Counted from the first letter of the stretch, positions 2,972 to 20,905 are shown. The stretch is 64,000 bases of DNA from Spirochaetota bacterium (GCA_050298055.1 JBNKTL010000026.1:1-64000); one strand, 5' to 3'. A program made the numbers and translations. The notes: a model not told the origin generated them from the sequence alone.

Positions 2972-4324
2972 TCACCGAAGTTCCAGCCACTTTTTATGAA
3001 AGAACCTTCGTGTAAGAAGAAGGGACTGTATCAGAATGGAGGCGTTCATGCTCCACCAGATAAAGACCTGTCCCATTTCAAGATAAATCCCCAGGAGAAA
3101 GCTCAGGGGGATCCTCACCACCCATAAGCTGAAGAGGATGATCTTCATGATCCCCTTTGTATCCCCCGCCCCCGAAAGACCTCCCCCGAGGATGACACCC
3201 CAGGCCATGAAGGGTTCGCTTATCATGCTGATATAGATATACCACCTGCACTCATGGACCACACTGCCGTCATGGGAAAGAAGACCCGAGATCCGGCCCG
3301 CGTTGAGAACCACCAGGAGAGTCAAAAGAACAACAATCACCGTCCCCAGAAGGGCCGTTGTCCGGCCGCACCTCAGCGCCTCATCCTTCTTCTCCTCACC
3401 TAAAAGGTTTCCCACGATCACCGCATTGGACATATTAAACGCGAAGGCGGGAAGAAAAATCGCCGATTCTATTCTCAGACCGTTTGTAAAGGCCGCCATG
3501 ACCTCAATGGCCTTTTCCGGGAGGCGGCTTAAAATGAGGAAGAGGATGGTGCTCGATGCCTGCCAGTTCAGTTGTGTAAATCCCGAGGGCCAGCCGATGG
3601 AAATGACTTTCTTTAGCATCTCCGGGGAGATTTTCTTTGGTCCCGCAAAAAATCCCCTGAGGATGTAAAGGTTGATCAGGCTCCCGGCCAGAACGCTCAC
3701 AGCCGTAGAGAGGGCAATGCCCCGGAATGCCAGCCCCGTATAAAAGACAAAGGTGAAGTTCAGGAGGATATTGACCAGGCAGACAACCGACATTGTCCCA
3801 AGGGACTTTCTCACCATCTTCACCGCCCGGAGGACCCCGTTGCTGTTGATGAGCAGATAGTGAAAGGGAAGGCCCAGGGCATAGAACCTCATGAGCTCCG
3901 ACGCAAAGGGACGAAGCTCCCCCGGGACGTTCAGGAACCCGATAATAAGGGGGGAAAGAAAATATCCCGAAACACCGAGAACAATACCCGCAAAAAAGGA
4001 GAGAACAGTAGTAGAGAAGATCGCCGGGACCAGAGGGTCCGCGTCCCCTTTCCCTTTAACAGAGGTAAAGAGCCGGGATACCACGGCAACCGTCCCGATG
4101 GTCAGGGCGTTGGCAATGACAATAAACATGAAGTAGACCTGTGTTGAAAAACCCACAGAGGCCTGGACCTCTTTCCCGATCTTCCCGGCAATAAAAACAT
4201 CGGTAAGGCCTATGAGAAACTCAAAGAGCATAATGAAGACCATGGGCCAGCTCACCGACCAGCTCCTGAGGAGGTATTCCCTCATTTCCCGGATTCTTTG
4301 ACTTCTTTCACTGTTCACTGGCAT
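2972..4324 (-). CDS. MATE-family efflux transporter/flippase
   Basis: About 12 hydrophobic helices in two repeats; TDVFIAGKIG and GAGDTK motifs typical of MATE. Confidence 0.9.
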   Translation of the reverse strand: MPVNSERSQRIREMREYLLRSWSVSWPMVFIMLFEFLIGLTDVFIAGKIGKEVQASVGFSTQVYFMFIVIANALTIGTVAVVSRLFTSVKGKGDADPLVPAIFSTTVLSFFAGIVLGVSGYFLSPLIIGFLNVPGELRPFASELMRFYALGLPFHYLLINSNGVLRAVKMVRKSLGTMSVVCLVNILLNFTFVFYTGLAFRGIALSTAVSVLAGSLINLYILRGFFAGPKKISPEMLKKVISIGWPSGFTQLNWQASSTILFLILSRLPEKAIEVMAAFTNGLRIESAIFLPAFAFNMSNAVIVGNLLGEEKKDEALRCGRTTALLGTVIVVLLTLLVVLNAGRISGLLSHDGSVVHECRWYIYISMISEPFMAWGVILGGGLSGAGDTKGIMKIILFSLWVVRIPLSFLLGIYLEMGQVFIWWSMNASILIQSLLLTRRFFHKKWLELR

Positions 4325-4423
4325 CTCTCCACTCTTCTGTTCATCTTAACAGAATCTTTACAGGAGACAACGACAAATTTCTTGACAACCGGGACTTTAT
4401 TGCATCTACTCCGTAAAAATAAT

Positions 4424-4456
4424 AACTGACGTGTCCCCGCCGCCTTCGGCGGGACA
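4424..4456. repeat. Palindromic intergenic repeat family B (TGTCCCCGCCG...CGGCGGGACA), copy 1
   Basis: aactgacgtgtccccgccgccttcggcgggaca; related copies at 21021-21066, 30199-30226 and 37662-37700. Confidence 0.75.
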
Positions 4457-4468
4457 AAGGATAGACCC

Positions 4469-4849
4469 ATGGGAAAAAAGCAGAAAGCCGATATCAGCCG
4501 CCTCTTCAGGGCATTTATCTATACAATGAAGGGGATAAAGGCCGTCTGGGAACATGAGGCGGCATTCAGGCAGGAAGTCTACCTCTTTATATTCCTGGTA
4601 CCCGCCGGCCTCTTCCTGGGTGAGAACTGGGTGGAACGGTCACTGCTTATCGGTTCATGTCTCATAGTGCTTATCACGGAACTCCTTAACTCGGCAGTTG
4701 AGGCTGTTGTAGACAGGTTCGGCGGGGAGCAGCATGAGCTCTCGGGAAGGGCAAAGGACATGGGATCGGCTGCGGTCTTTTTCAGCCTGCTGCTGGTGGT
4801 TTTTATCTGGGTTTCGTACATCATCAGCAGGTTTTTCTTCAATAAATAA
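4469..4849 (+). CDS. dgkA: Diacylglycerol kinase (prokaryotic DgkA)
   Basis: EAAFRQE, ELLNSAVEAVVD, AKDMGSAAV motifs. Confidence 0.95.
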   Translation: MGKKQKADISRLFRAFIYTMKGIKAVWEHEAAFRQEVYLFIFLVPAGLFLGENWVERSLLIGSCLIVLITELLNSAVEAVVDRFGGEQHELSGRAKDMGSAAVFFSLLLVVFIWVSYIISRFFFNK

Positions 4850-4905
4850 CAGTATAACACATATTTACATTTCGTAACATTTGTTAAAAAAAATTTTTTT
4901 ATACA

Positions 4906-4934
4906 TTGACAGCCTCCTGTCTCATCCTTATATT
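4906..4934 (+). promoter_or_regulatory. Sigma70-type promoter for the small peptide gene
   Basis: TTGACA (4906-4911), 17-nt spacer, TATATT (4929-4934). Confidence 0.7.
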
Positions 4935-4966
4935 AATAGAGAATTTAAGGTACCGGAGGTGAAGAT

Positions 4967-5029
4967 ATGAAGATCAAAAAAGTTAAAAAATCAGATAAGG
5001 GACTCTGCAAGTGCGGCAGCTCCTGTTAA
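4967..5029 (+). CDS. 20-aa Cys-rich peptide MKIKKVKKSDKGLCKCGSSC, candidate RiPP precursor (not in ORF track)
   Basis: Translated by hand; GGAGGT RBS at 4955-4960, 6 nt before the ATG; promoter upstream, terminator downstream, radical SAM/SPASM gene next in the operon. Confidence 0.8.
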   Translation: MKIKKVKKSDKGLCKCGSSC

Positions 5030-5057
5030 TAAGAAATAAACCTTTTTAAGATTTACC

Positions 5058-5085
5058 GGTCGAAAATATTTCGGCCTTTTTTTTT
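5058..5085 (+). terminator. Intrinsic terminator/attenuator after the peptide gene
   Basis: ggtcgaaa-ata-tttcggcc hairpin followed by a T9 run. Confidence 0.7.
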
Positions 5086-5104
5086 GCACACAGAAGGGAT
5101 CATT

Positions 5105-5467
5105 ATGTCCAAGATTGATGTTCAGGATTTTCTCTGCCGGCCATTCTGCCGCTTTTTTAAAGAGGGTGAAAAAGAGGAGATGGAGTGCGGGGGAGCACGG
5201 GTCATTGAGGAACTCATCAGGAGCGGCAAGCTCAGGACCGGCCTGGTCCCCTCCGGGGGAAAAGATTTTTCTCTCTGGAAGAAGCGCAACCCTCTCCTTG
5301 CAAAGATGGTATGTGACAGGTGCGAATTCAGGATCGACGGGTGTGACTATATGTCCCTTAACCCTCCGCCCGATGCCGAACCCTGCGGGGGAAATATCCT
5401 GCTCTCCCTCCTTCTGAAAAACAGAATAATCAGGGCAGAGGACTTTGAAGACCTCAATGACCGATAA
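5105..5467 (+). CDS. Small Cys-rich hypothetical protein (7 Cys), probable metal-binding partner of the radical SAM enzyme
   Basis: CRPFC..ECGG..CDRC..GCD..PCGG; likely start MSKID at 5105; overlaps the radical SAM start. Confidence 0.75.
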   Translation: MSKIDVQDFLCRPFCRFFKEGEKEEMECGGARVIEELIRSGKLRTGLVPSGGKDFSLWKKRNPLLAKMVCDRCEFRIDGCDYMSLNPPPDAEPCGGNILLSLLLKNRIIRAEDFEDLNDR

Positions 5468-6626
5468 GAAGAACTGGAAAGAACTCTACCTGCGCCTGCG
5501 GAGGGAAGCCGCCCTGAAAAGACTTGAGAAAGACTTTATCTACCATACGGGAAGAGATGAGCTCTACGAGATAGACGGGAAAGCGGCATCCTTCCTGGCT
5601 TCATGCAACGGGACAAAAAAGGGGAAAGACCTCACAAACGAATCGGATTTTGTAGAGTACTGCCTTGAAGAGGGGATACTGGAAGCCCTGGAGAAACCGG
5701 GTGAGATCAACACCGAAGTTACTCTCTCCCCTGTTCCCTCCCTGAGATACCTTGAACTTCAGCTTACAGAGAGGTGCAACCTCATGTGCAGGCACTGCTA
5801 TCTCGGCAGCTCCGGGAAAAATGATATGGAGCTGGAAACGGCCCTGGGAATAACCGGTGAGTTCCATTCAATGGGGGGACTGAGGCTCCTTATCTCAGGA
5901 GGGGAGCCCCTGCTCTATCCCCCTCTCGCCGACTTCCTGAGAGAGATATCCCCGCTTAAAATACGAAGGGTCCTCCTCACAAACGGGACGCTTTTAGACA
6001 GAAAGAACATCGGGATGATCAACGTGGAGGAAATTCAGTTCAGCCTGGACGGATGGGAAAAGGGGCATGAGATGATCCGGGGGAGGGGTTCATTCGCGAA
6101 AACCCTTAAAGGAATTGAAACAGCCGCGGCCGCGGGCAAGCAGGTTTCACTGGCCACAATGATTCACCGGGGAAACCTCCATGATTTTGAGAAGGTGAAA
6201 GAGTTCGCAATGAAGATAGACGCCGTAGAATGGGGTATAGATATCATGTGTATTGCCGGGAACCTCAGGGAAAATCCCGGCCTTATTGTTCCCTATGAAG
6301 AAGCTGCAAAATACATGAAATACTCATACGGAGGGGGATACCACGGCTCATCGGACGGTTACGCCTGCGGCAGGCATCTCATGACAGTCCTTCCCGGCGG
6401 GACCGCCGTTAAGTGCGGGTTCTACGACAGGTCCCTGGGCAACGCGGCCGAAAGCCTCGAAAAGTGCTGGCTCAATCTTGAACATATTAAACTGGAAGAC
6501 ATGAAGTGCAAAACGTGCCCCGTGGTAAACGAATGCTGCGGAGGCTGCAGGTTCAGGGCCGCGGGCTTATATGAAGTCGATCCCGCAATGTGTGCGGTTC
6601 ACGGGATTGATCCCGAGCTTCTTTAA
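5457..6626 (+). CDS. Radical SAM/SPASM-domain protein, putative peptide maturase
   Basis: CNLMCRHC (CX3CX2C), SGGEP; C-terminal ACG..KCG..CKTC-x5-CCGGC..C SPASM pattern; about 90-aa N-terminal extension. Confidence 0.92.
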   Translation: MTDKKNWKELYLRLRREAALKRLEKDFIYHTGRDELYEIDGKAASFLASCNGTKKGKDLTNESDFVEYCLEEGILEALEKPGEINTEVTLSPVPSLRYLELQLTERCNLMCRHCYLGSSGKNDMELETALGITGEFHSMGGLRLLISGGEPLLYPPLADFLREISPLKIRRVLLTNGTLLDRKNIGMINVEEIQFSLDGWEKGHEMIRGRGSFAKTLKGIETAAAAGKQVSLATMIHRGNLHDFEKVKEFAMKIDAVEWGIDIMCIAGNLRENPGLIVPYEEAAKYMKYSYGGGYHGSSDGYACGRHLMTVLPGGTAVKCGFYDRSLGNAAESLEKCWLNLEHIKLEDMKCKTCPVVNECCGGCRFRAAGLYEVDPAMCAVHGIDPELL

Positions 6627-6732
6627 TAAACAAATATTTTTAAAATTAATCTTTACCAATAAGAAAAAAAGTATTATGAACTGTATCAGGAGAGGGACAG
6701 ATACCACACCATAAAATAATTGGAGGCAGAAT

Positions 6733-7386
6733 ATGAAAAGAACAGGCATACTGGTGATTGTGCTTTTACTCTCGGCTCTCCCTGAAAGCTGCGGTAAAAA
6801 ACAGGATGGAAAAGGCGAATTAACGGGAAAAATTATCCACTCCCTGGGTACGGTTACAATCAATGGGAAAAATCCGGGTGCAGATAAATCTGTTAAATAC
6901 GGAGATGTCATTGAAACCGGAAAAGACGGGACCTGCTCTATCCAGGTGGGGGAGAAATCAATCTTCAGGATCAATACGGGCTCAAAGCTGACATTTAACA
7001 TCTCAAGGAAGCGTAATGATCTTGTTCTGGAAAGAGGATGGTTTACGGGAATTACAAGGAAGATTTTTACAACCCGGGGAAAATATTTTCTTAAAACTCC
7101 AACAGTCACTGCGGCAATCAGGGGGACCTCATACTGCGTAAAGGTCGAAAATCCGAAAAGCACCTATTTCTGTGTCTGCAACGGGACCATAGCCCTTGCC
7201 GGTCCCGGAGAAAGAAAGGGAAGAGATGTATCGGCGGCACACCACATTGCCCGGAGATTTAAAATTGATAAAGAAGGAAAACTCGAGATAGATAAATCAC
7301 CCGGCATGCTCTATCATGAAGATAAGACTCTTGAAGACCTTGCGGCAAAGATATCTGAAAAAATAGACTGGAAAAAGGCGTTCTGA
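6733..7386 (+). CDS. FecR-domain lipoprotein
   Basis: Lipobox-like ESC; GDVIETG and KTPTVTAAIRGTSY motifs of the FecR domain. Confidence 0.8.
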   Translation: MKRTGILVIVLLLSALPESCGKKQDGKGELTGKIIHSLGTVTINGKNPGADKSVKYGDVIETGKDGTCSIQVGEKSIFRINTGSKLTFNISRKRNDLVLERGWFTGITRKIFTTRGKYFLKTPTVTAAIRGTSYCVKVENPKSTYFCVCNGTIALAGPGERKGRDVSAAHHIARRFKIDKEGKLEIDKSPGMLYHEDKTLEDLAAKISEKIDWKKAF

Positions 7387-7389
7387 GTT

Positions 7390-8013
7390 CTATCCCTCAT
7401 GCTTCATGGTCTTTTTGAGAACCTCAAGTTCAACATTAAGGTCAAGAAGATCGTCTTCAAGGAGACTGGCAAGCTGCCTGTCAAAGGTCTTTTTTATTTC
7501 GTCCAGGAGACCCTCGACCTTTGCCAGTGACTCCCGGACGTCAGGTGTTACGTCTGTCCTGCCGGAAAGGTCCACATACTGGTTTATGATCTTCTCCGTG
7601 GAATCCAGGTAGTAATTGATAAAGGTCTTTATTTTTCTTAAGTCCGAAGGGTTCTTTTTTATATCATCAAATATTTCAATCCCGACCTTGCAGATCTCCT
7701 GGATCTTCTTTGCCGCGTCGTTGTTCCTGATCATCCTGGTTTTGTTACGGATCCGTGTAAGGACTTTCATCCCTTCATCATACGCCTTTTGCGCCTTTTC
7801 TCCCTCCGGGGTTTTTACCCGGGACTCATCCTTTTCACCCTTCTCAAATGTACTTTTGAGAAACCTTCTCGCAATAATAAACGCCGCAAGACCAAGAAGA
7901 AATGCCACAAGAAACGCGCTGAATCCGCTGAAAAAGAGGTACTTGAACAGGACCCCTCTCAGCAGGGCATAGGCACCGATACCGGCAACAACTGAAAAAA
8001 TAAACTTTAACAT
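7390..8013 (-). CDS. XpaC-like (5-bromo-4-chloroindolyl phosphate hydrolysis family) membrane protein
   Basis: Two N-terminal TM helices; FINYYLDST..IINQY and DDLLDLNVELEVL motifs. Confidence 0.8.
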   Translation of the reverse strand: MLKFIFSVVAGIGAYALLRGVLFKYLFFSGFSAFLVAFLLGLAAFIIARRFLKSTFEKGEKDESRVKTPEGEKAQKAYDEGMKVLTRIRNKTRMIRNNDAAKKIQEICKVGIEIFDDIKKNPSDLRKIKTFINYYLDSTEKIINQYVDLSGRTDVTPDVRESLAKVEGLLDEIKKTFDRQLASLLEDDLLDLNVELEVLKKTMKHEG

Positions 8014-9408: not shown

Positions 9409-9882
9409 ATGCCAAGAGCTAAAATCTGGGGCTTTTTCGCTGTTTTAGTATCATCAGCAGCAGCCCTGTTTAATTTCTATTCAATTTTTATTGCCGAAAA
9501 AATCGGTTTATCGGCCCAAAACCAGCCGGGACTGGAAAGCCTGGGAAATTTAACATACTATTCAATGGCCGTTCCCGTAACAGCTGTATCTCTTTTTGTA
9601 CTGGGTACAGGCTTCTGGATAGGATATACCATATTAACAATAAAGGTGGTCGCTCCAATGCCGGAATTACATGAAAAAAAGGACAATTCAAAGTTTAAAG
9701 CATTTCTGCTCTGTGCCATTACCCTTGCTTCAGGGACAATGCTGATCTATGGAGTAGTAAAAAGAAATTTCTGGTCACTGGCTATCCCTTCACTTGTTAT
9801 CTCACTTGTAATACTCGGCGCGATATTCTGGGTGGGCTTGGCAATAATAACCACACGGTCCACGTTAAAGGAGAGAGAGTAA
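9409..9882 (+). CDS. Hypothetical 4-TM membrane protein
   Basis: Hydrophobic helices; internal repeat GFWIGYTILT / IFWVGLAIIT. Confidence 0.7.
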   Translation: MPRAKIWGFFAVLVSSAAALFNFYSIFIAEKIGLSAQNQPGLESLGNLTYYSMAVPVTAVSLFVLGTGFWIGYTILTIKVVAPMPELHEKKDNSKFKAFLLCAITLASGTMLIYGVVKRNFWSLAIPSLVISLVILGAIFWVGLAIITTRSTLKERE

Positions 9883-9914
9883 ATCTCTCCACCCATAAAC
9901 AATCAGACGGAAAA

Positions 9915-11156
9915 GTGAAAGTTCTATTTTTATTATACAGGGGCAATCCCTACTGTGGAGGGCAGGGAATCTATCTCTACTACCTGAGCAGAGAACTGGC
10001 AAAACTGGGCGCGGAAATTGACGTGATTGTGGGCCCCCCCTATCCCGATTCCCTTGATGAATGGTCAACAGTCCATAAAGTAGAGAACCTTAACATCTGG
10101 GCGGTAAAATCAAGGGATTTCAGCGCGGATAAAAGAAAGAGACTTCTCTCCCCGTGGAATTTTATGGACTTTTTTCTTACCCGGCTCCATATCTTTCCTG
10201 AAATGCAGACATTCAGTATGAGAGCGTTTTTTCTACTCAAAAAACTCCTGGAAAAGAAGAAGTATGATATCATTCACGATATCAATACACTGGGCTGGGG
10301 AAATCTCCCCATAAAGGGATACGGCATACCGGTCATTTCAACCATCCACCATCCCCTGACAAGGGACAGGGACGCGGACCTTATGCTTGAAAATACCCTC
10401 TGGGGAAAACTTACAACAATACTTTTCTACCCCCTGATGATGCAAAAAACCGTGATCAACAGGCTGGACAGGATTATTACATCCTTTTACGGCGGTGTGG
10501 AGGAGCTGAAAAGCGCGTACGGTCTGAAAAACCATAAAATCTCCGTTGTGTATAACGGCCTTGATACCGAAAAGTTCGTAAACAGCGGCAGCAAAAGAGA
10601 GGAGAACTCCCTGCTCTTCGTGGGGAATACCGAGGACTATAAGAAGGGCCTTGTCTACCTTTTGCAGGCAATGACCATGTTGCCGGAGAGGATCACACTC
10701 ACCATTGTTGATGAAGGCCCCCCCTTGAAGCTTCACGCCACAAAACTCACGGAAAAATATCATTTAACAGACCGTGTCACATTTACCGGGAAAGTGGACA
10801 GTGAAAGACTTGTGAAGCTTTACTCGGAAAAAACCCTCCTGGTCATGCCGTCTCTCTATGAAGGGTTTGGTCTTCCCGCAGTTGAAGCAATGTCCTGCTC
10901 AACCCCTGTGGTCACCACAAATGCGGGCGCGTTGAAAGAGGTGGTTGATAATTCATGCGGTATAACGGTACCCCCGGAAGACCCCGAAGCCCTGAAGGAC
11001 GCGGTAATGAGAATCATCGATGATAAAAAACTGAGAGACCGCATGGGAAAGGCCGGCAGGAAGAGAGCAGTGGATATGTTCTCATGGCCGGTTGCGGCAA
11101 AGAATACATATAATGTCTATCTCGATGTTATTGATCAATACGGGGGACGGAAATGA
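9915..11156 (+). CDS. Glycosyltransferase family 4 (GT-B)
   Basis: YRGNPYCGGQG N-terminus; PSLYEGFGLPAVEAM. Confidence 0.92.
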   Translation: MKVLFLLYRGNPYCGGQGIYLYYLSRELAKLGAEIDVIVGPPYPDSLDEWSTVHKVENLNIWAVKSRDFSADKRKRLLSPWNFMDFFLTRLHIFPEMQTFSMRAFFLLKKLLEKKKYDIIHDINTLGWGNLPIKGYGIPVISTIHHPLTRDRDADLMLENTLWGKLTTILFYPLMMQKTVINRLDRIITSFYGGVEELKSAYGLKNHKISVVYNGLDTEKFVNSGSKREENSLLFVGNTEDYKKGLVYLLQAMTMLPERITLTIVDEGPPLKLHATKLTEKYHLTDRVTFTGKVDSERLVKLYSEKTLLVMPSLYEGFGLPAVEAMSCSTPVVTTNAGALKEVVDNSCGITVPPEDPEALKDAVMRIIDDKKLRDRMGKAGRKRAVDMFSWPVAAKNTYNVYLDVIDQYGGRK

Positions 11157-12391
11157 AAATATGCCTCCTCAGCTACAGAGGCAACCCCTACTGCGGCGGA
11201 CAGGGGATCTATGTCAGCTACCTGGCCAGGCAGCTTGTTAAGATGGGGCATGAGGTCCACCTGGTCATAGGCCCTCCCTATCCCCATGAAATAGAGGGGG
11301 TCCATCTTCATAAAATTTTCAACCATAACTATTTTAACAGAAGAAAAGACTTTATCGATAAAACAAATCCCTTCTCCACCCTGAAACCGCTTAACTTCTA
11401 TGAATTTATCTCATCGAAGTTCGGTGTATTTCCCGAGATGGAGACCTTCTCGATCAGGGCGGCCAGGCTCATAAACAGGCTTCAGAGTAAGCACCGGTTT
11501 GATGTGATTCACGACAACCAGTGCCTGGGTTACGGATATCTTCTCCTCAAAAACAGCGGAGTTCCCCTTATCTCCACAATCCATCATCCCCTGACCATAG
11601 ACAGGTCAATATGGTTTGAGTTCCCTACCGGGTTCAGCCTGAAGGTAAAGAGGATGCTCTACTATCCGCTGATCATGCAGAAGTTCGTGGCCAACAGAAT
11701 GGAGAGGATTGTGACCGTTTCAGAAGATTCCGCAAAGACAATAACCGAGGCTTTCGGTGTACCGGAAAAGAAGATCAGCGTTGTCTACAACGGAATGGAC
11801 ACGAATCTCTTCTATCCTGAAAAAAACGTAAAGAAGAAAAAGAACAGCCTCATCTTCGTGGGGAACATAGAGGACAGGAAGAAGGGTGTAGCCTATCTCC
11901 TGAAAGCCCTGAAGATGACGCAAAACCGGGTACACCTCACCATTGTGGACGGAGGCGCGCCCACCAGGAGCGTTATACCCGGTCTTATAGACAGGCTGGG
12001 AATAAACCACCTGGTAACATTTACCGGAAAGATACCCATCGAAAGGCTCAACCGTCTCTACTCCGAAACCGAGATTGCCGTTGCCCCCTCTCTCTATGAA
12101 GGCTTTGGATTTCCCGCCGCGGAAGCAATGGCATGCCAGCTCCCGGTCATAGCTGCCCGTTCGGGAGCCCTACCCGAGGTTGTGGGTGAGCATAGGGAAA
12201 CAGGTTACCTTGTTCCTCCCCGGGATCCGGAAGCCATTGCAAGGGGAATAGATTTCCTTATAGACAATCCCAATGTAAGGAAGAAACTCGCTCTAAACGG
12301 CAGGAAAAGGGTAATGGGCGAATTCAGGTGGGAAAAAGCGGCAGAAGAGATGATACGGATATACAGAGAGACAAAAGATGCTCACAGTTGA
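11153..12391 (+). CDS. Glycosyltransferase family 4 (GT-B), paralog of the upstream gene
   Basis: SYRGNPYCGGQG; PSLYEGFGFPAAEAM; ATGA overlap with the upstream gene. Confidence 0.92.
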   Translation: MKICLLSYRGNPYCGGQGIYVSYLARQLVKMGHEVHLVIGPPYPHEIEGVHLHKIFNHNYFNRRKDFIDKTNPFSTLKPLNFYEFISSKFGVFPEMETFSIRAARLINRLQSKHRFDVIHDNQCLGYGYLLLKNSGVPLISTIHHPLTIDRSIWFEFPTGFSLKVKRMLYYPLIMQKFVANRMERIVTVSEDSAKTITEAFGVPEKKISVVYNGMDTNLFYPEKNVKKKKNSLIFVGNIEDRKKGVAYLLKALKMTQNRVHLTIVDGGAPTRSVIPGLIDRLGINHLVTFTGKIPIERLNRLYSETEIAVAPSLYEGFGFPAAEAMACQLPVIAARSGALPEVVGEHRETGYLVPPRDPEAIARGIDFLIDNPNVRKKLALNGRKRVMGEFRWEKAAEEMIRIYRETKDAHS

Positions 12392-13079
12392 TTTTGACAG
12401 GCTTGATATAAAGGAGGGGGATACCGTTCTGGACGCGGGATGCGGTTTCGGGAGGCACTCCCTGGAGTTCATGAACCGGGGCGCTGATATCTTCAGCATG
12501 GATATTGATTTTGAGTCCCTCAAAAAAACAAAGTACGCCCTGGCGCTTCTCAATAAAGACAGGGATAAAAACAGAAACAGGTACATGGTACACCTGGGTG
12601 ATGCCCTGAAACTCCCTTTCAGGGACGAAACATTTCACAGGATCATCTGTTCCGAGGTCATGGAACATGTTGACGATGATTTTCTCGCCTGCAGCGAACT
12701 TGCGCGGGTTTTAAAAAAAAACGGCAGGATCGCCATAACCGTCCCCACATTTTTCAGTGAAGCCATATACGATCTTCTCACATACGAATATTTTTCAACT
12801 CCCGGCGGCCATGTAAGGAAATACCTGCCGGGAAGACTTGCCGAAATAATGAGAAAAAACGGCCTCGAGATTTACTCAATCGGTTTTAAGCACTCTTTTC
12901 ACACAATCTGGTGGATCATACGGTGCGTTGTGGGACTCCACAGGGCAAATCATCCCCTGACCCGGGCCTATCATGGCTTTCTGAACTTATGCCTCAGGAC
13001 GCCTTTCCTCCGAAAGGCCGAAAGCTTCTTCGATAATTTCTTCCCCAAGAGCCTTGTTCTTTACGCCTGGAAAAAATAA
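12378..13079 (+). CDS. Class I SAM-dependent methyltransferase
   Basis: VLDAGCGFGRH, GDALKLPF, SEVMEH. Confidence 0.92.
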   Translation: MLTVDFDRLDIKEGDTVLDAGCGFGRHSLEFMNRGADIFSMDIDFESLKKTKYALALLNKDRDKNRNRYMVHLGDALKLPFRDETFHRIICSEVMEHVDDDFLACSELARVLKKNGRIAITVPTFFSEAIYDLLTYEYFSTPGGHVRKYLPGRLAEIMRKNGLEIYSIGFKHSFHTIWWIIRCVVGLHRANHPLTRAYHGFLNLCLRTPFLRKAESFFDNFFPKSLVLYAWKK

Positions 13080-18787: not shown

Positions 18788-20659
18788 ATGGCAAAGCACA
18801 AATTTCAGACAGAAGTCAACCAACTGCTTCATCTTATCATCCATTCACTCTACTCTCACAGGGAAATATTCCTCAGGGAGCTGATATCCAACGCGTCGGA
18901 CGCCCTGGACAAGCTAAAATATCTCACTCTAACCGATGATAACTACAAATCCATAGATTTTGATCCCCGGGTGGATATCTATTTTGACAGCGAAAGCAGC
19001 ATTCTCTCAATCGCCGATACAGGCATTGGTATGAGCGAACAGGAACTGGAAGAGAACCTGGGCACAATTGCGAAATCGGGAACCCGGAACTTTATCGAAA
19101 AGATGACCGGAGACGACAAAAAGGACTCCAACCTCATCGGCCAGTTCGGAATGGGTTTTTATTCATCATTCATGGTGGCTGATAAGGTAGAGGTCATATC
19201 CCGCCGGGCGGGAGAAGAGAAGGCCCATAAATGGACCAGCGACGGCAAGGGTGAGTATGATATTGAAGATGCCGTGAGGGACGCCACGGGAACAACCATC
19301 ACCCTCTTCCTCAATGACGACGGCAAAGAGTATGCGAATAAGTGGCAGATCGAATCGGTCATTAAAAAATACTCCAACCATGTTCCATTCCCCATCTTCC
19401 TTCACTACGAGGAGACCAAACATGAGGGTGAGGGGGATAAAAAAAAGGAGATCAAGGAGCCAAAAACCGACCAGATAAACCTGGCATCAGCCATCTGGAA
19501 GAGGTCCAAGAGCGAACTCAAGGATGAGGACTACAACGAGTTCTATAAGTCCATATCCCATGAAAACGCCGACCCCCTTCACCATGTCCATACCCACGCG
19601 GAGGGAGTCCTGGACTATACAACCCTTTTTTATTTCCCCGAAAAGGCCCCCATGGACCTCTACAGGGCGGATTACACCCCGGGGGTAAAGCTCTACGTCA
19701 AGCGCGTCTTCATAACTGATGACGACAAGGAGCTTTTGCCCACATATTTAAGGTTTGTCAGGGGGATAATCGACTCGGAGGACCTACCCCTCAACGTCAG
19801 CAGGGAAATATTGCAGCAGAACAGGGTCATGGCCAAGATCAGAAGTTCATCGGTGAAAAAGATACTGGGCGAACTTGAGGACTTAAAGAAAAATGACAGG
19901 GAGAAGTATAATAAATTCTACGGTGAATTCGGGGTCCCGGTGAAGGAAGGGCTCTACCAGGACTTTGAAAACAGGGAGAAGCTCCTGGGTCTGGTCATGT
20001 TCAAGTCCACCAAAGCGGATGGATATACAACACTTGATGAGTATGTGGAACGATTTGAACCGGACCAGAACGCCATCTACTACATAACCGGCGGAAAGGA
20101 GGAGGCCCTGAAGAACTCACCCCTCCTGGAGATGTACAGGAAGAAGAACATCGAGGTCCTCATCATGGACCATGAGATCGACGAGATCGTCATATCCTCC
20201 ATCCCCAAGTACAAAGACTACGACATGAAATCGGTAAACAGGACCGATTCCGCCGAAGACCTGAAGACAGAGGCCGATAAGGAGAAGGAGAAGGAGGTCA
20301 AGCCCCTTATCAAAAAGATAAAGAAGGTCCTGGGAGACAGGGTAAAGGATGTCAAGGCCAGCACACGGCTCAGCGACTCCCCCTCATGCATCGTTGCCGA
20401 TGAGAACGACCCCACGGTGCAGATGCAGCATATCCTGAAGGCCATGGGACAGGACGCCATGCAGGAATTTAAGCCGGTCCTGGAGATAAACCCGGAACAT
20501 GAGATCGTCCGGAAGCTCATGGACGCATCCGATGATTCCCTGATCTCGGATATCAGCTTTCTCCTCCTGGAGCAGGCTATGCTCATCGAAGGAGTGGAGA
20601 TAAAATCCACCGCGGATTTTGTCAAAAGGCTCAACAGGGTCATGGGGAAGGCCATTTAG
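18788..20659 (+). CDS. htpG: Chaperone HtpG (Hsp90)
   Basis: FQTEV, LRELISNASDA, IGQFGMGFYS, LPLNVSRE. Confidence 0.98.
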   Translation: MAKHKFQTEVNQLLHLIIHSLYSHREIFLRELISNASDALDKLKYLTLTDDNYKSIDFDPRVDIYFDSESSILSIADTGIGMSEQELEENLGTIAKSGTRNFIEKMTGDDKKDSNLIGQFGMGFYSSFMVADKVEVISRRAGEEKAHKWTSDGKGEYDIEDAVRDATGTTITLFLNDDGKEYANKWQIESVIKKYSNHVPFPIFLHYEETKHEGEGDKKKEIKEPKTDQINLASAIWKRSKSELKDEDYNEFYKSISHENADPLHHVHTHAEGVLDYTTLFYFPEKAPMDLYRADYTPGVKLYVKRVFITDDDKELLPTYLRFVRGIIDSEDLPLNVSREILQQNRVMAKIRSSSVKKILGELEDLKKNDREKYNKFYGEFGVPVKEGLYQDFENREKLLGLVMFKSTKADGYTTLDEYVERFEPDQNAIYYITGGKEEALKNSPLLEMYRKKNIEVLIMDHEIDEIVISSIPKYKDYDMKSVNRTDSAEDLKTEADKEKEKEVKPLIKKIKKVLGDRVKDVKASTRLSDSPSCIVADENDPTVQMQHILKAMGQDAMQEFKPVLEINPEHEIVRKLMDASDDSLISDISFLLLEQAMLIEGVEIKSTADFVKRLNRVMGKAI

Positions 20660-20696
20660 TTTCAGGTTTCAGGTTTCAAGTTCCAAGTTATAAGTT
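20659..20696 (+). repeat. Degenerate heptamer tandem GTTTCAG/GTTCCAA, 5 units
   Basis: gtttcag gtttcag gtttcaa gttccaa gttataa. Confidence 0.7.
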
Positions 20697-20905
20697 GAAA
20701 GATGGCAGGTACAATCAGGATATAGGTAACGGAATTTTTGAACCGCAGATTAACGCGGATAAACACGGGTGTTTAAGAATTTTAGAGTTTGCGAAAATTC
20801 AGGGGTTCGTGTTATTATTCATTAAACATGAAACCTTTAACTCAATAGAAAATTACGACACAGTTATATGACTAAAAACTGTCATTTTGGCAAATTGTTA
20901 GTAAT

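Follow-up and report, generated by a model that had tools for sequence, protein, structure and literature searches.

A conserved, apparently unnamed trio for probable peptide maturation in anaerobes, with a 20-residue cysteine peptide as its likely substrate

Three adjacent genes of a Spirochaetota bacterium, encoding a 20-residue peptide, a 120-residue protein with seven cysteines and a radical SAM enzyme, belong to a real and conserved trio of anaerobes that is very probably a peptide-maturation system and that apparently has no name. Radical SAM peptide maturases are a main source of new enzyme chemistry. The case for peptide maturation is made by the conservation of the peptide and the selection acting on it, by its tracking of the enzyme, by the SkfB/SuiB-like fold predicted for the enzyme, by the seven cysteines and by natural gene fusions.

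We analysed a 64,000-nt stretch of the genome (the window), in which the trio and its signals are arranged as follows.

4906..6626, + strand: the whole trio region in the 64,000-nt window of the Spirochaetota bacterium
4906..4934, + strand: putative sigma-70-type promoter-like site, TTGACA-17-TATATT, with an 11/12 match to the consensus
4955..4960, + strand: ribosome-binding site GGAGGT, 6 nt ahead of the ATG
4967..5029, + strand: putative precursor peptide gene, 20 aa, with a basic leader-like N terminus and a C-K-C-x-x-S-C core
5058..5085, + strand: intrinsic-terminator-like hairpin and T9, between the peptide gene and the two downstream genes
5105..5467, + strand: seven-cysteine protein gene, 120 aa, a tandem of two ~55-residue cysteine modules; putative enzyme partner
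5457..6626, + strand: radical SAM enzyme gene, 389 aa, with a predicted RRE-like N-terminal domain, CxxxCxxC and a seven-cysteine SPASM-type C terminus

The original prediction had read a promoter, a GGAGGT site, a micro-ORF, a hairpin with nine T, a cysteine-rich gene of ~120 codons and an overlapping radical SAM gene in this region, and all of them are where it placed them. The hairpin has 8 pairs (5058–5076) and is followed directly by the nine T. The seven-cysteine gene and the enzyme gene (ATG at 5457) share an overlap of 11 nt; enzyme residue numbers given here start at the codon at 5460, and one is added for numbering from Met.

The promoter-like site is the best of 5 in positions 4000–8000, where 4.1 are expected by chance, and the region holds 7 terminator-like sites against 5.8 in shuffled sequences. 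Both signals thus carry weight only together with comparative data. Judged by eye, TTGACA-type sites lie upstream of many peptide genes of the same layout, and a hairpin with a T-run lies 3' of most related peptide genes; purine-rich sites precede related peptide genes.

Several further candidates were considered and dropped. A structured-RNA reading of the peptide transcript gave no Rfam match and a folding z of −0.85, which is not unusual. The dgkA-like gene (4469–4849), the MATE transporter gene (2972–4324, opposite strand) and the gene for a FecR-domain lipoprotein (6733–7386) all fall outside the 45 neighbour groups shared by the most loci. Elsewhere in the window (9409–13079) lies an operon, unrelated to the trio, of a small membrane protein gene, two similar glycosyltransferase-like genes and a methyltransferase-like gene (labels by eye).

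The 20-codon peptide gene

We aligned 34 homologues of the seven-cysteine protein, used the alignment to retrieve 46 genome loci and searched these with a pattern that fixed only C-x-C-x3-C-stop. The matches were only to the 20-residue peptide, with its start always equally distant. A complete peptide of the same length, M-x-I-[KRQ]-K...C-K-C-x-x-S-C, preceded by a ribosome-binding site, is present in 37 of the 46 loci; the check proposed in the original prediction, a conserved micro-ORF beside or co-occurring with homologous enzymes, thus came out in its favour. In another locus (L019) the peptide is truncated by the contig end, in three (L021, L034, L043) the upstream sequence is only 9–225 nt long and the peptide is not in view, and for the remaining five it was located at another site of the genome, weakly in the archaeal case (E 0.03).

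Conservation extends to positions outside the search pattern: Ile3 and Lys15 are kept in all 38 peptide copies, Lys5 in 37 and Ser19 in 35. The core had originally been given as CKCGSSC; C-K-C-x-x-S-C is conserved, and Gly17 and Ser18 are not. Over 34 distinct peptide genes synonymous codons vary freely, and pN/pS is 0.21/0.76 = 0.28 (uncorrected). By these codon-level comparisons, the 20-codon ORF at 4967–5029 is a real gene under purifying selection. In the window's own 4.7-Mb genome, C-x-C-x3-C-stop occurs eight times in six frames, and a Lys-rich basic leader accompanies just one of the eight, the peptide of the trio.

A survey of peptide length, with a pattern that required C-[KR]-C and covered all loci gathered by then, found that 85 distinct peptides from outside the archaeal set stop at Cys20; the archaeal peptides have one further residue after Cys20 in 27 of 28 cases. 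We dropped the idea of selenocysteine read-through because all three stop codons are in use after Cys20 (TGA 17, TAA 12 and TAG 9 in 38 copies).

The micro-ORF had been described as lying below gene-calling cut-offs, and this holds for its relatives: none of the eight peptides looked up is present in a collection of 15 billion proteins. Since a putative substrate of 20 codons falls under gene-calling limits, the peptide-enzyme family has been overlooked so far. Pfam models matched none of 20 peptides, a search with little power at 20 residues.

Extra peptide copies, in tandem or standing alone, are seen in L077 (3157–3437), on contig C80 of G686 (20614–20839), on three contigs of the Syntrophaceae record G003 and in several archaeal genomes. 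These carry promoter-like and ribosome-binding signals of their own.

The enzyme and its seven-cysteine partner

The enzyme matches the Pfam Radical_SAM model (PF04055) at 71.4 bits against a cut-off of 29.5, and the three cysteines of the CxxxCxxC SAM-cluster motif are present in all 356 distinct homologues. Its seven C-terminal cysteines, C303-x15-C319 and C350-x2-C353-x5-C359-x3-C363-x14-C378, are each found in 351–356 of the 356, which bears out the original assignment to the SPASM type. His306 is likewise kept in 356 of the 356 homologues, His295 in 353 and Cys264 in 255. The Pfam models for SPASM (PF13186) and PqqD gave no match to the window's enzyme, and Pfam gave none on its residues 1–97.

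In the AlphaFold2 model of the enzyme (pLDDT 93.7) the N-terminal domain consists of three strands and then helices. The best structural match is SkfB (Z 26.7, rmsd 4.9, 332 aligned, model residues 15–372), and SuiB matches over a similar span (Z 25.1, rmsd 4.6, 354 aligned, model residues 11–385); the N-terminal strands and helices of this whole-chain predicted model lie inside both aligned ranges. The next matches, CteB and anSME, align only from residue 91–94 onward. Foldseek gives a similar order. An RRE-like N-terminal domain is accordingly a predicted feature of the modelled enzyme.

Homologues of the enzyme carry only generic names in the source databases. There are 72 NCBIfam families that match it, and the best 25 of the 72 all lie far under their cut-offs (the top one at 86 bits against 650). 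The top matches are the AhbC/AhbD/NirJ models, and they speak for a reading in which the ORF arose by chance and the enzyme is a SPASM protein of that kind that does not act on peptides. These matches span the radical SAM core only, with scores for TIGR04546, TIGR04545, TIGR04051, TIGR04054 and TIGR04055 of 70–86 bits against cut-offs of 500–650. Membership of these families had been named at the outset as fatal to a peptide maturase; the scores place the enzyme outside them, and in the N-terminal domain its predicted model resembles peptide maturases that carry an RRE. Codon-level conservation of the peptide and its co-occurrence with the enzyme make a chance frame hardly conceivable, and we regard that reading as refuted by the peptide conservation data.

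The profile of the seven-cysteine protein matches 247 representatives at 50% identity, and in 130 aligned members six of the cysteines never vary and the seventh hardly does. A profile built from 51 one-module proteins matches the 120-residue proteins twice, which indicates that these are tandem duplications of a ~55-residue module; in the window's own protein the match to the second module is weak and in two pieces. The predicted model is compactly folded (pLDDT 84.8). Its best match in a fold search of 48,161 chains reaches Z 4.5 (rmsd 2.5, 57 aligned), Foldseek finds no match at E 0.001, the ESM Atlas has only unnamed clusters for it, and Pfam gives no family common to more than two of the 130 members. 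A complex prediction of the enzyme with this protein scored 0.00, which gives no verdict and weighs neither way.

Nature has also joined the two proteins. In six sequences (P0196, P0245, G679, G553, G619 and G587) the cysteine module is fused in frame to the N terminus of the enzyme, and in the last four the peptide gene lies directly upstream. All 30 archaeal loci that we examined have a one-module copy upstream of the enzyme. Because of the natural fusions, the seven-cysteine protein is more likely a helper than a substrate; from its linkage we infer a helper that serves this enzyme and, by its cysteine pattern, may bind metal or an Fe-S cluster, and such a putative helper would be a new kind of maturase partner. 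A separate sequence, P0296, joins the module and the N-terminal half of the enzyme to an NrdG2-like C terminus and is possibly an assembly chimera.

The reverse assignment, in which the enzyme modifies the seven-cysteine protein (like CrpC with CrpA and QhpD with QhpC) and the peptide is a leader-like activator in trans, is very improbable. It has a precedent in CrpA/CrpC, as given in the available text of PMC13692751, and it would suit both the tight translational overlap of the two genes and the presence of the protein in 75 of the 83 Nitrospirota genomes that have the enzyme (it is also present in 5 enzyme-negative ones). It is opposed by the compact predicted fold, which has no leader-like segment, by the existence of a one-module 55-residue form and by the fusions to the enzyme, and it leaves the invariant cysteine core of the peptide unexplained.

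Co-occurrence, distribution and neighbouring genes

With the enzyme alignment we fetched 80 metagenome loci, the best 80 of 460 confirmed. They show the layout of the window (peptide, 120-residue cysteine gene, enzyme), a second layout with the cysteine gene divergent and then the enzyme and the peptide, and a third with a 55-residue one-module cysteine gene, the enzyme and the peptide. A fourth arrangement was observed in L100 and L128 (5147–5221 in both), where the peptide gene lies on the other strand and converges with the enzyme gene.

Among 102 distinct full-length enzymes with enough flanking sequence, 78 have the peptide within the fetched stretch. Those that do not are 18 archaeal enzymes and L200/L201, whose genomes carry the peptide elsewhere, and four metagenome loci (L090, L110, L127 and L129) seen over the fetched stretch only.

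Whole genomes were searched on even samples; as relatives are not independent observations and many of the genomes are incomplete, counts are given without a statistic. In Nitrospirota, the phylum of our Thermodesulfovibrio record (G002), 83 of 201 genomes have the enzyme, 82 the peptide and 80 both. In Desulfobacterota, the phylum of the Syntrophaceae record, the figures for 251 genomes are 31, 29 and 29, and in the two genomes with the enzyme but without the peptide the enzymes lie at contig ends. In Methanosarcinales, the order of the Methanoperedenaceae record (G001), 43 of 201 genomes have the enzyme, 50 the peptide (at E 0.1) and 42 both; four of the eight peptide-only genomes are weak matches. 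The genes can be far apart: in G327 the enzyme lies at 855 kb, the peptide at 1,000 kb and the cysteine gene at 1,056 kb of the same contig. In these surveys the peptide is found to track the enzyme across three gene orders and when unlinked, and the trio recurs in many anaerobic bacteria and in methane-oxidising archaea.

The trio is sparse in the window's own lineage, with the peptide in 2 of 60 relatives and the enzyme in none of 200 other genomes in a sample of the phylum Spirochaetota. In a FastTree tree, used for grouping only, the window's enzyme groups with two Spirochaetota loci in a mainly Desulfobacterota clade (local support 88), a placement that suggests gene transfer.

Among the 45 commonest neighbour groups there is no exporter, transporter or protease that forms a fixed part of the system, and we saw no conserved client oxidoreductase beside the genes. 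Four kinds of accessory gene are found in related loci, with counts that include some near-duplicate loci. A cupin-like protein of ~110 residues with a His-rich tail occurs in 25 loci (for example L013:4078–4416 and L027:2481–2804). A second radical SAM/SPASM protein (~320 residues, 27 sequences) is without the N-terminal domain, and no named family fits it. An ATP-grasp-like protein of ~303 residues (PF02655, E 2.9e-5) is conserved in 20 loci and is a candidate for an extra tailoring ligase acting on the Lys-rich peptide. A class I methyltransferase gene lies 3' of the core enzyme gene in 8 loci (L012, L027, L049/L053, L063, L068, L075 and L082). All four types are absent from the window, and close homologues of them are missing from the rest of its genome too, which reduces the core to three genes.

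Some particulars of these neighbours deserve recording. By eye, P0290 seems to be a fusion of the His-tailed cupin to the cysteine module, linking the cupin to the trio. The second radical SAM/SPASM gene adjoins the core enzyme gene in many Desulfobacterota and Nitrospirota loci (for example L060:5196–6146 and L123:7049–8026), and the ATP-grasp-like gene lies directly 3' of the peptide gene in L048, L089, L092 and L101 (for example L101:4300–5211) and in 16 further loci, all of the third layout. In several loci the methyltransferase is accompanied by the cupin, and in G004 its gene is flanked by two identical copies of the peptide gene. Loci of the second and third layouts (for example L039, L090, L095, L101, L139 and L208) have recurring ferritin/rubrerythrin-, superoxide dismutase- and thiol peroxidase-like neighbours, and NifS/NifU-like and 2-oxoacid:ferredoxin oxidoreductase-like ones also recur; these labels are readings of the sequences, and the recurrence may reflect shared ancestry only.

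Neighbours of this kind, beside some loci, would suit a peptide that is a minimal metallothionein-like or metal- or sulfur-carrying molecule with its three thiols free, the enzyme tuning its backbone or using it as a carrier. His-tailed cupins and the ferritin-, superoxide dismutase- and NifS/NifU-like genes (the non-cupin labels again being sequence readings) fit such a role, and C-x-C-x3-C is discussed for metallothioneins in the available text of the literature. We nevertheless consider it unlikely. None of the 20 peptides has a Pfam match (a search of little power at this length), inspection by eye showed no conserved motif resembling an operator upstream of the peptide genes, and the neighbours vary by lineage among kin that are not independent.

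Proposed chemistry and described systems

If the trio is a peptide-maturation system, its chemistry is probably thioether crosslinking. The full reading to which we incline, with some reserve, is a three-component intracellular RiPP-type maturation system that places thioether rings on the peptide core with the aid of a cysteine helper. The peptide would be transcribed from its own promoter and probably, because of the terminator 3' of its gene, at a higher level than the two downstream proteins. The basic strand at its N terminus, M-x-I-K-K-V, may dock on the RRE-like domain, as the fold suggests. The enzyme would cleave SAM and abstract hydrogen from one residue of the C-K-C-x-x-S-C core, the acceptor, for which the invariant Lys15 and the near-invariant Ser19 are the likeliest candidates by analogy. 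The acceptor carbon would then be joined to a core cysteine held at the three-cysteine AuxI cluster, giving at least one thioether ring, with the seven-cysteine protein as the putative metal- or Fe-S-binding helper. Since there is no conserved exporter or protease and retention is near lineage-wide in some anaerobes, the mature product would most likely remain intracellular.

The division of the peptide into leader and core is one that we infer. The thioether precursors known to us are all far longer than this peptide, with its three cysteines in seven residues and its 13-residue leader. SuiB forms a C–C bond, not a C–S bond, and scores nearly as high as SkfB, so that the fold does not fix the chemistry. 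The available text of PMC13692751 describes the same 3+4 arrangement of SPASM cysteines in the thioether-forming CrpC and proposes that an open AuxI iron binds the substrate cysteine; in the trio enzyme His295 or Cys264 could fill the fourth AuxI site. In the part of PMC12395415 available, the enteropeptin ring joins N-methylornithine to the next cysteine, so ring closure between a basic residue and the cysteine after it has been seen before.

The same precursor and enzyme might instead stand at the start of the synthesis of a small cofactor derived from the peptide, as in mycofactocin and PQQ, by decarboxylation, desulfuration or a C–C or C–N crosslink at Lys15, with the cupin, the second radical SAM enzyme, the methyltransferase and the ATP-grasp protein completing lineage-specific forms. 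This is possible, if on the doubtful side. Fixed peptide length, a near-invariant core, a promoter of its own, stand-alone and multi-copy peptide genes, recurrent accessory enzymes in related loci, the lack of an exporter and occurrence in about 40% of the sampled Nitrospirota genomes would all agree with it. By contrast, three invariant cysteines and a three-cysteine AuxI site fit C–S chemistry, the extra archaeal residue after Cys20 (27 of 28) disfavours any reaction that needs a C-terminal cysteine carboxylate, a conserved client oxidoreductase was not seen beside the genes, and the window's own genome is without close homologues of the accessory genes.

By sequence and model, the trio has the testable features of RRE-dependent radical SAM/SPASM RiPP systems: a short gene for a putative precursor that is conserved with the enzyme, CxxxCxxC, the seven-cysteine motif and a predicted RRE. 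Like the thioether maturases SkfB/SkfA (PDB 6efn) and CteB/SCIFF (PDB 5wgg, 5why; TIGR03973/TIGR03974), it combines an RRE-like domain, a radical SAM core and an auxiliary-cluster domain with a short cysteine-bearing peptide gene as partner. Sequence identity of the enzyme to SkfB and CteB over the structural alignments is only 18–21%. SCIFF is a longer peptide with six cysteines, whereas the trio precursor has 20 residues and three, and the trio has a dedicated cysteine-module partner. The SCIFF precursor model matches none of 20 peptides, and the SCIFF maturase model (cut-off 425) is outside the best 25 of the 72 NCBIfam families, the lowest of which scores 48.9 bits.

SuiB (PDB 5v1q/5v1t; streptide-type Lys-Trp crosslinking) resembles the trio enzyme along the whole chain, N-terminal domain included, and also has a short precursor with an invariant Lys; the trio peptide has no Trp or other conserved aromatic residue and has three invariant cysteines instead. 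With enteropeptin, as far as the available text of PMC12395415 describes it, the trio shares a basic residue just before a cysteine (K15-C16), a very short core and, in 8 related loci, an accompanying methyltransferase. It differs in having Lys in place of an Arg-derived residue and in having three cysteines; the maturases are set side by side here by description. CrpA/CrpC of Methanococcus voltae (TIGR04463), according to the available text of PMC13692751, likewise has an RRE-bearing, seven-cysteine SPASM enzyme beside cysteine-rich genes in an anaerobic archaeon. CrpA is large and built of repeats, with C-x-x-Q/D motifs, whereas the small protein of the trio is a putative helper folded from two modules, and a separate 20-residue peptide is present.

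Mycofactocin (MftA/MftC) and PQQ (PqqA/PqqE) share with the trio a short conserved intracellular precursor, a radical SAM/SPASM enzyme and lineage-wide retention. The enzyme scores 61.6 bits with the MftC model (cut-off 265) and 60.1 with PqqE (cut-off 381), and the trio peptide has a cysteine-rich core without the C-terminal Val-Tyr that the available part of PMC10288494 describes as essential for MftC. For StsA/StsB (NF045574) the enzyme reaches 62.3 bits against 625, and the StsA core CxCxCx4GxGxG, as given in the same part of PMC10288494, is missing from the trio peptides. For the thio(seleno)oxazole pair SbtA/SbtM, the precursor model TIGR04081 picked up a single one of 20 peptides, at E 0.14, and the enzyme scores 61.1 bits against 350 with the maturase model TIGR04082. 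By the models tested, the trio is not a member of the SCIFF/CteB, StsA/B, SbtA/M, mycofactocin, PQQ or Ahb/NirJ families.

The original remark that the precursor is not a recognised family also agrees with what we found: no description in the literature searched, and scores below cut-off for each of the 25 best-matching NCBIfam families out of 72. Literature on peptide motifs and radical SAM RiPPs in these lineages yielded no description, and a listing in a subscription-journal atlas is possible. In the spreadsheet of RRE-associated radical SAM precursors (PMC10288494) no entry contains any of five trio core strings; two matches to a four-letter string are unrelated peptides.

The trio is retained by about 40% of sampled Nitrospirota and a fifth of sampled Methanosarcinales, even with its three genes scattered. 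Such lineage retention does not suit a sporadic antibiotic cluster and suggests that the trio serves anaerobes in some basic function that has gone unrecognised. The enzyme is present in the cultured organisms Thermodesulfovibrio aggregans and Dissulfurispira thermophila; with cultured hosts for the enzyme and an easily synthesised 20-mer, the chemistry is directly testable. It is a rather speculative prospect that the product is an undescribed intracellular peptide-derived cofactor or metal ligand, made by new Cys/Lys radical chemistry with an obligatory helper of a new metal- or Fe-S-binding fold. If that were true, the cofactor or ligand would be shared by Thermodesulfovibrionia, Desulfobacterota, some Spirochaetota and methane-oxidising archaea, and would derive from one of the shortest precursors known.
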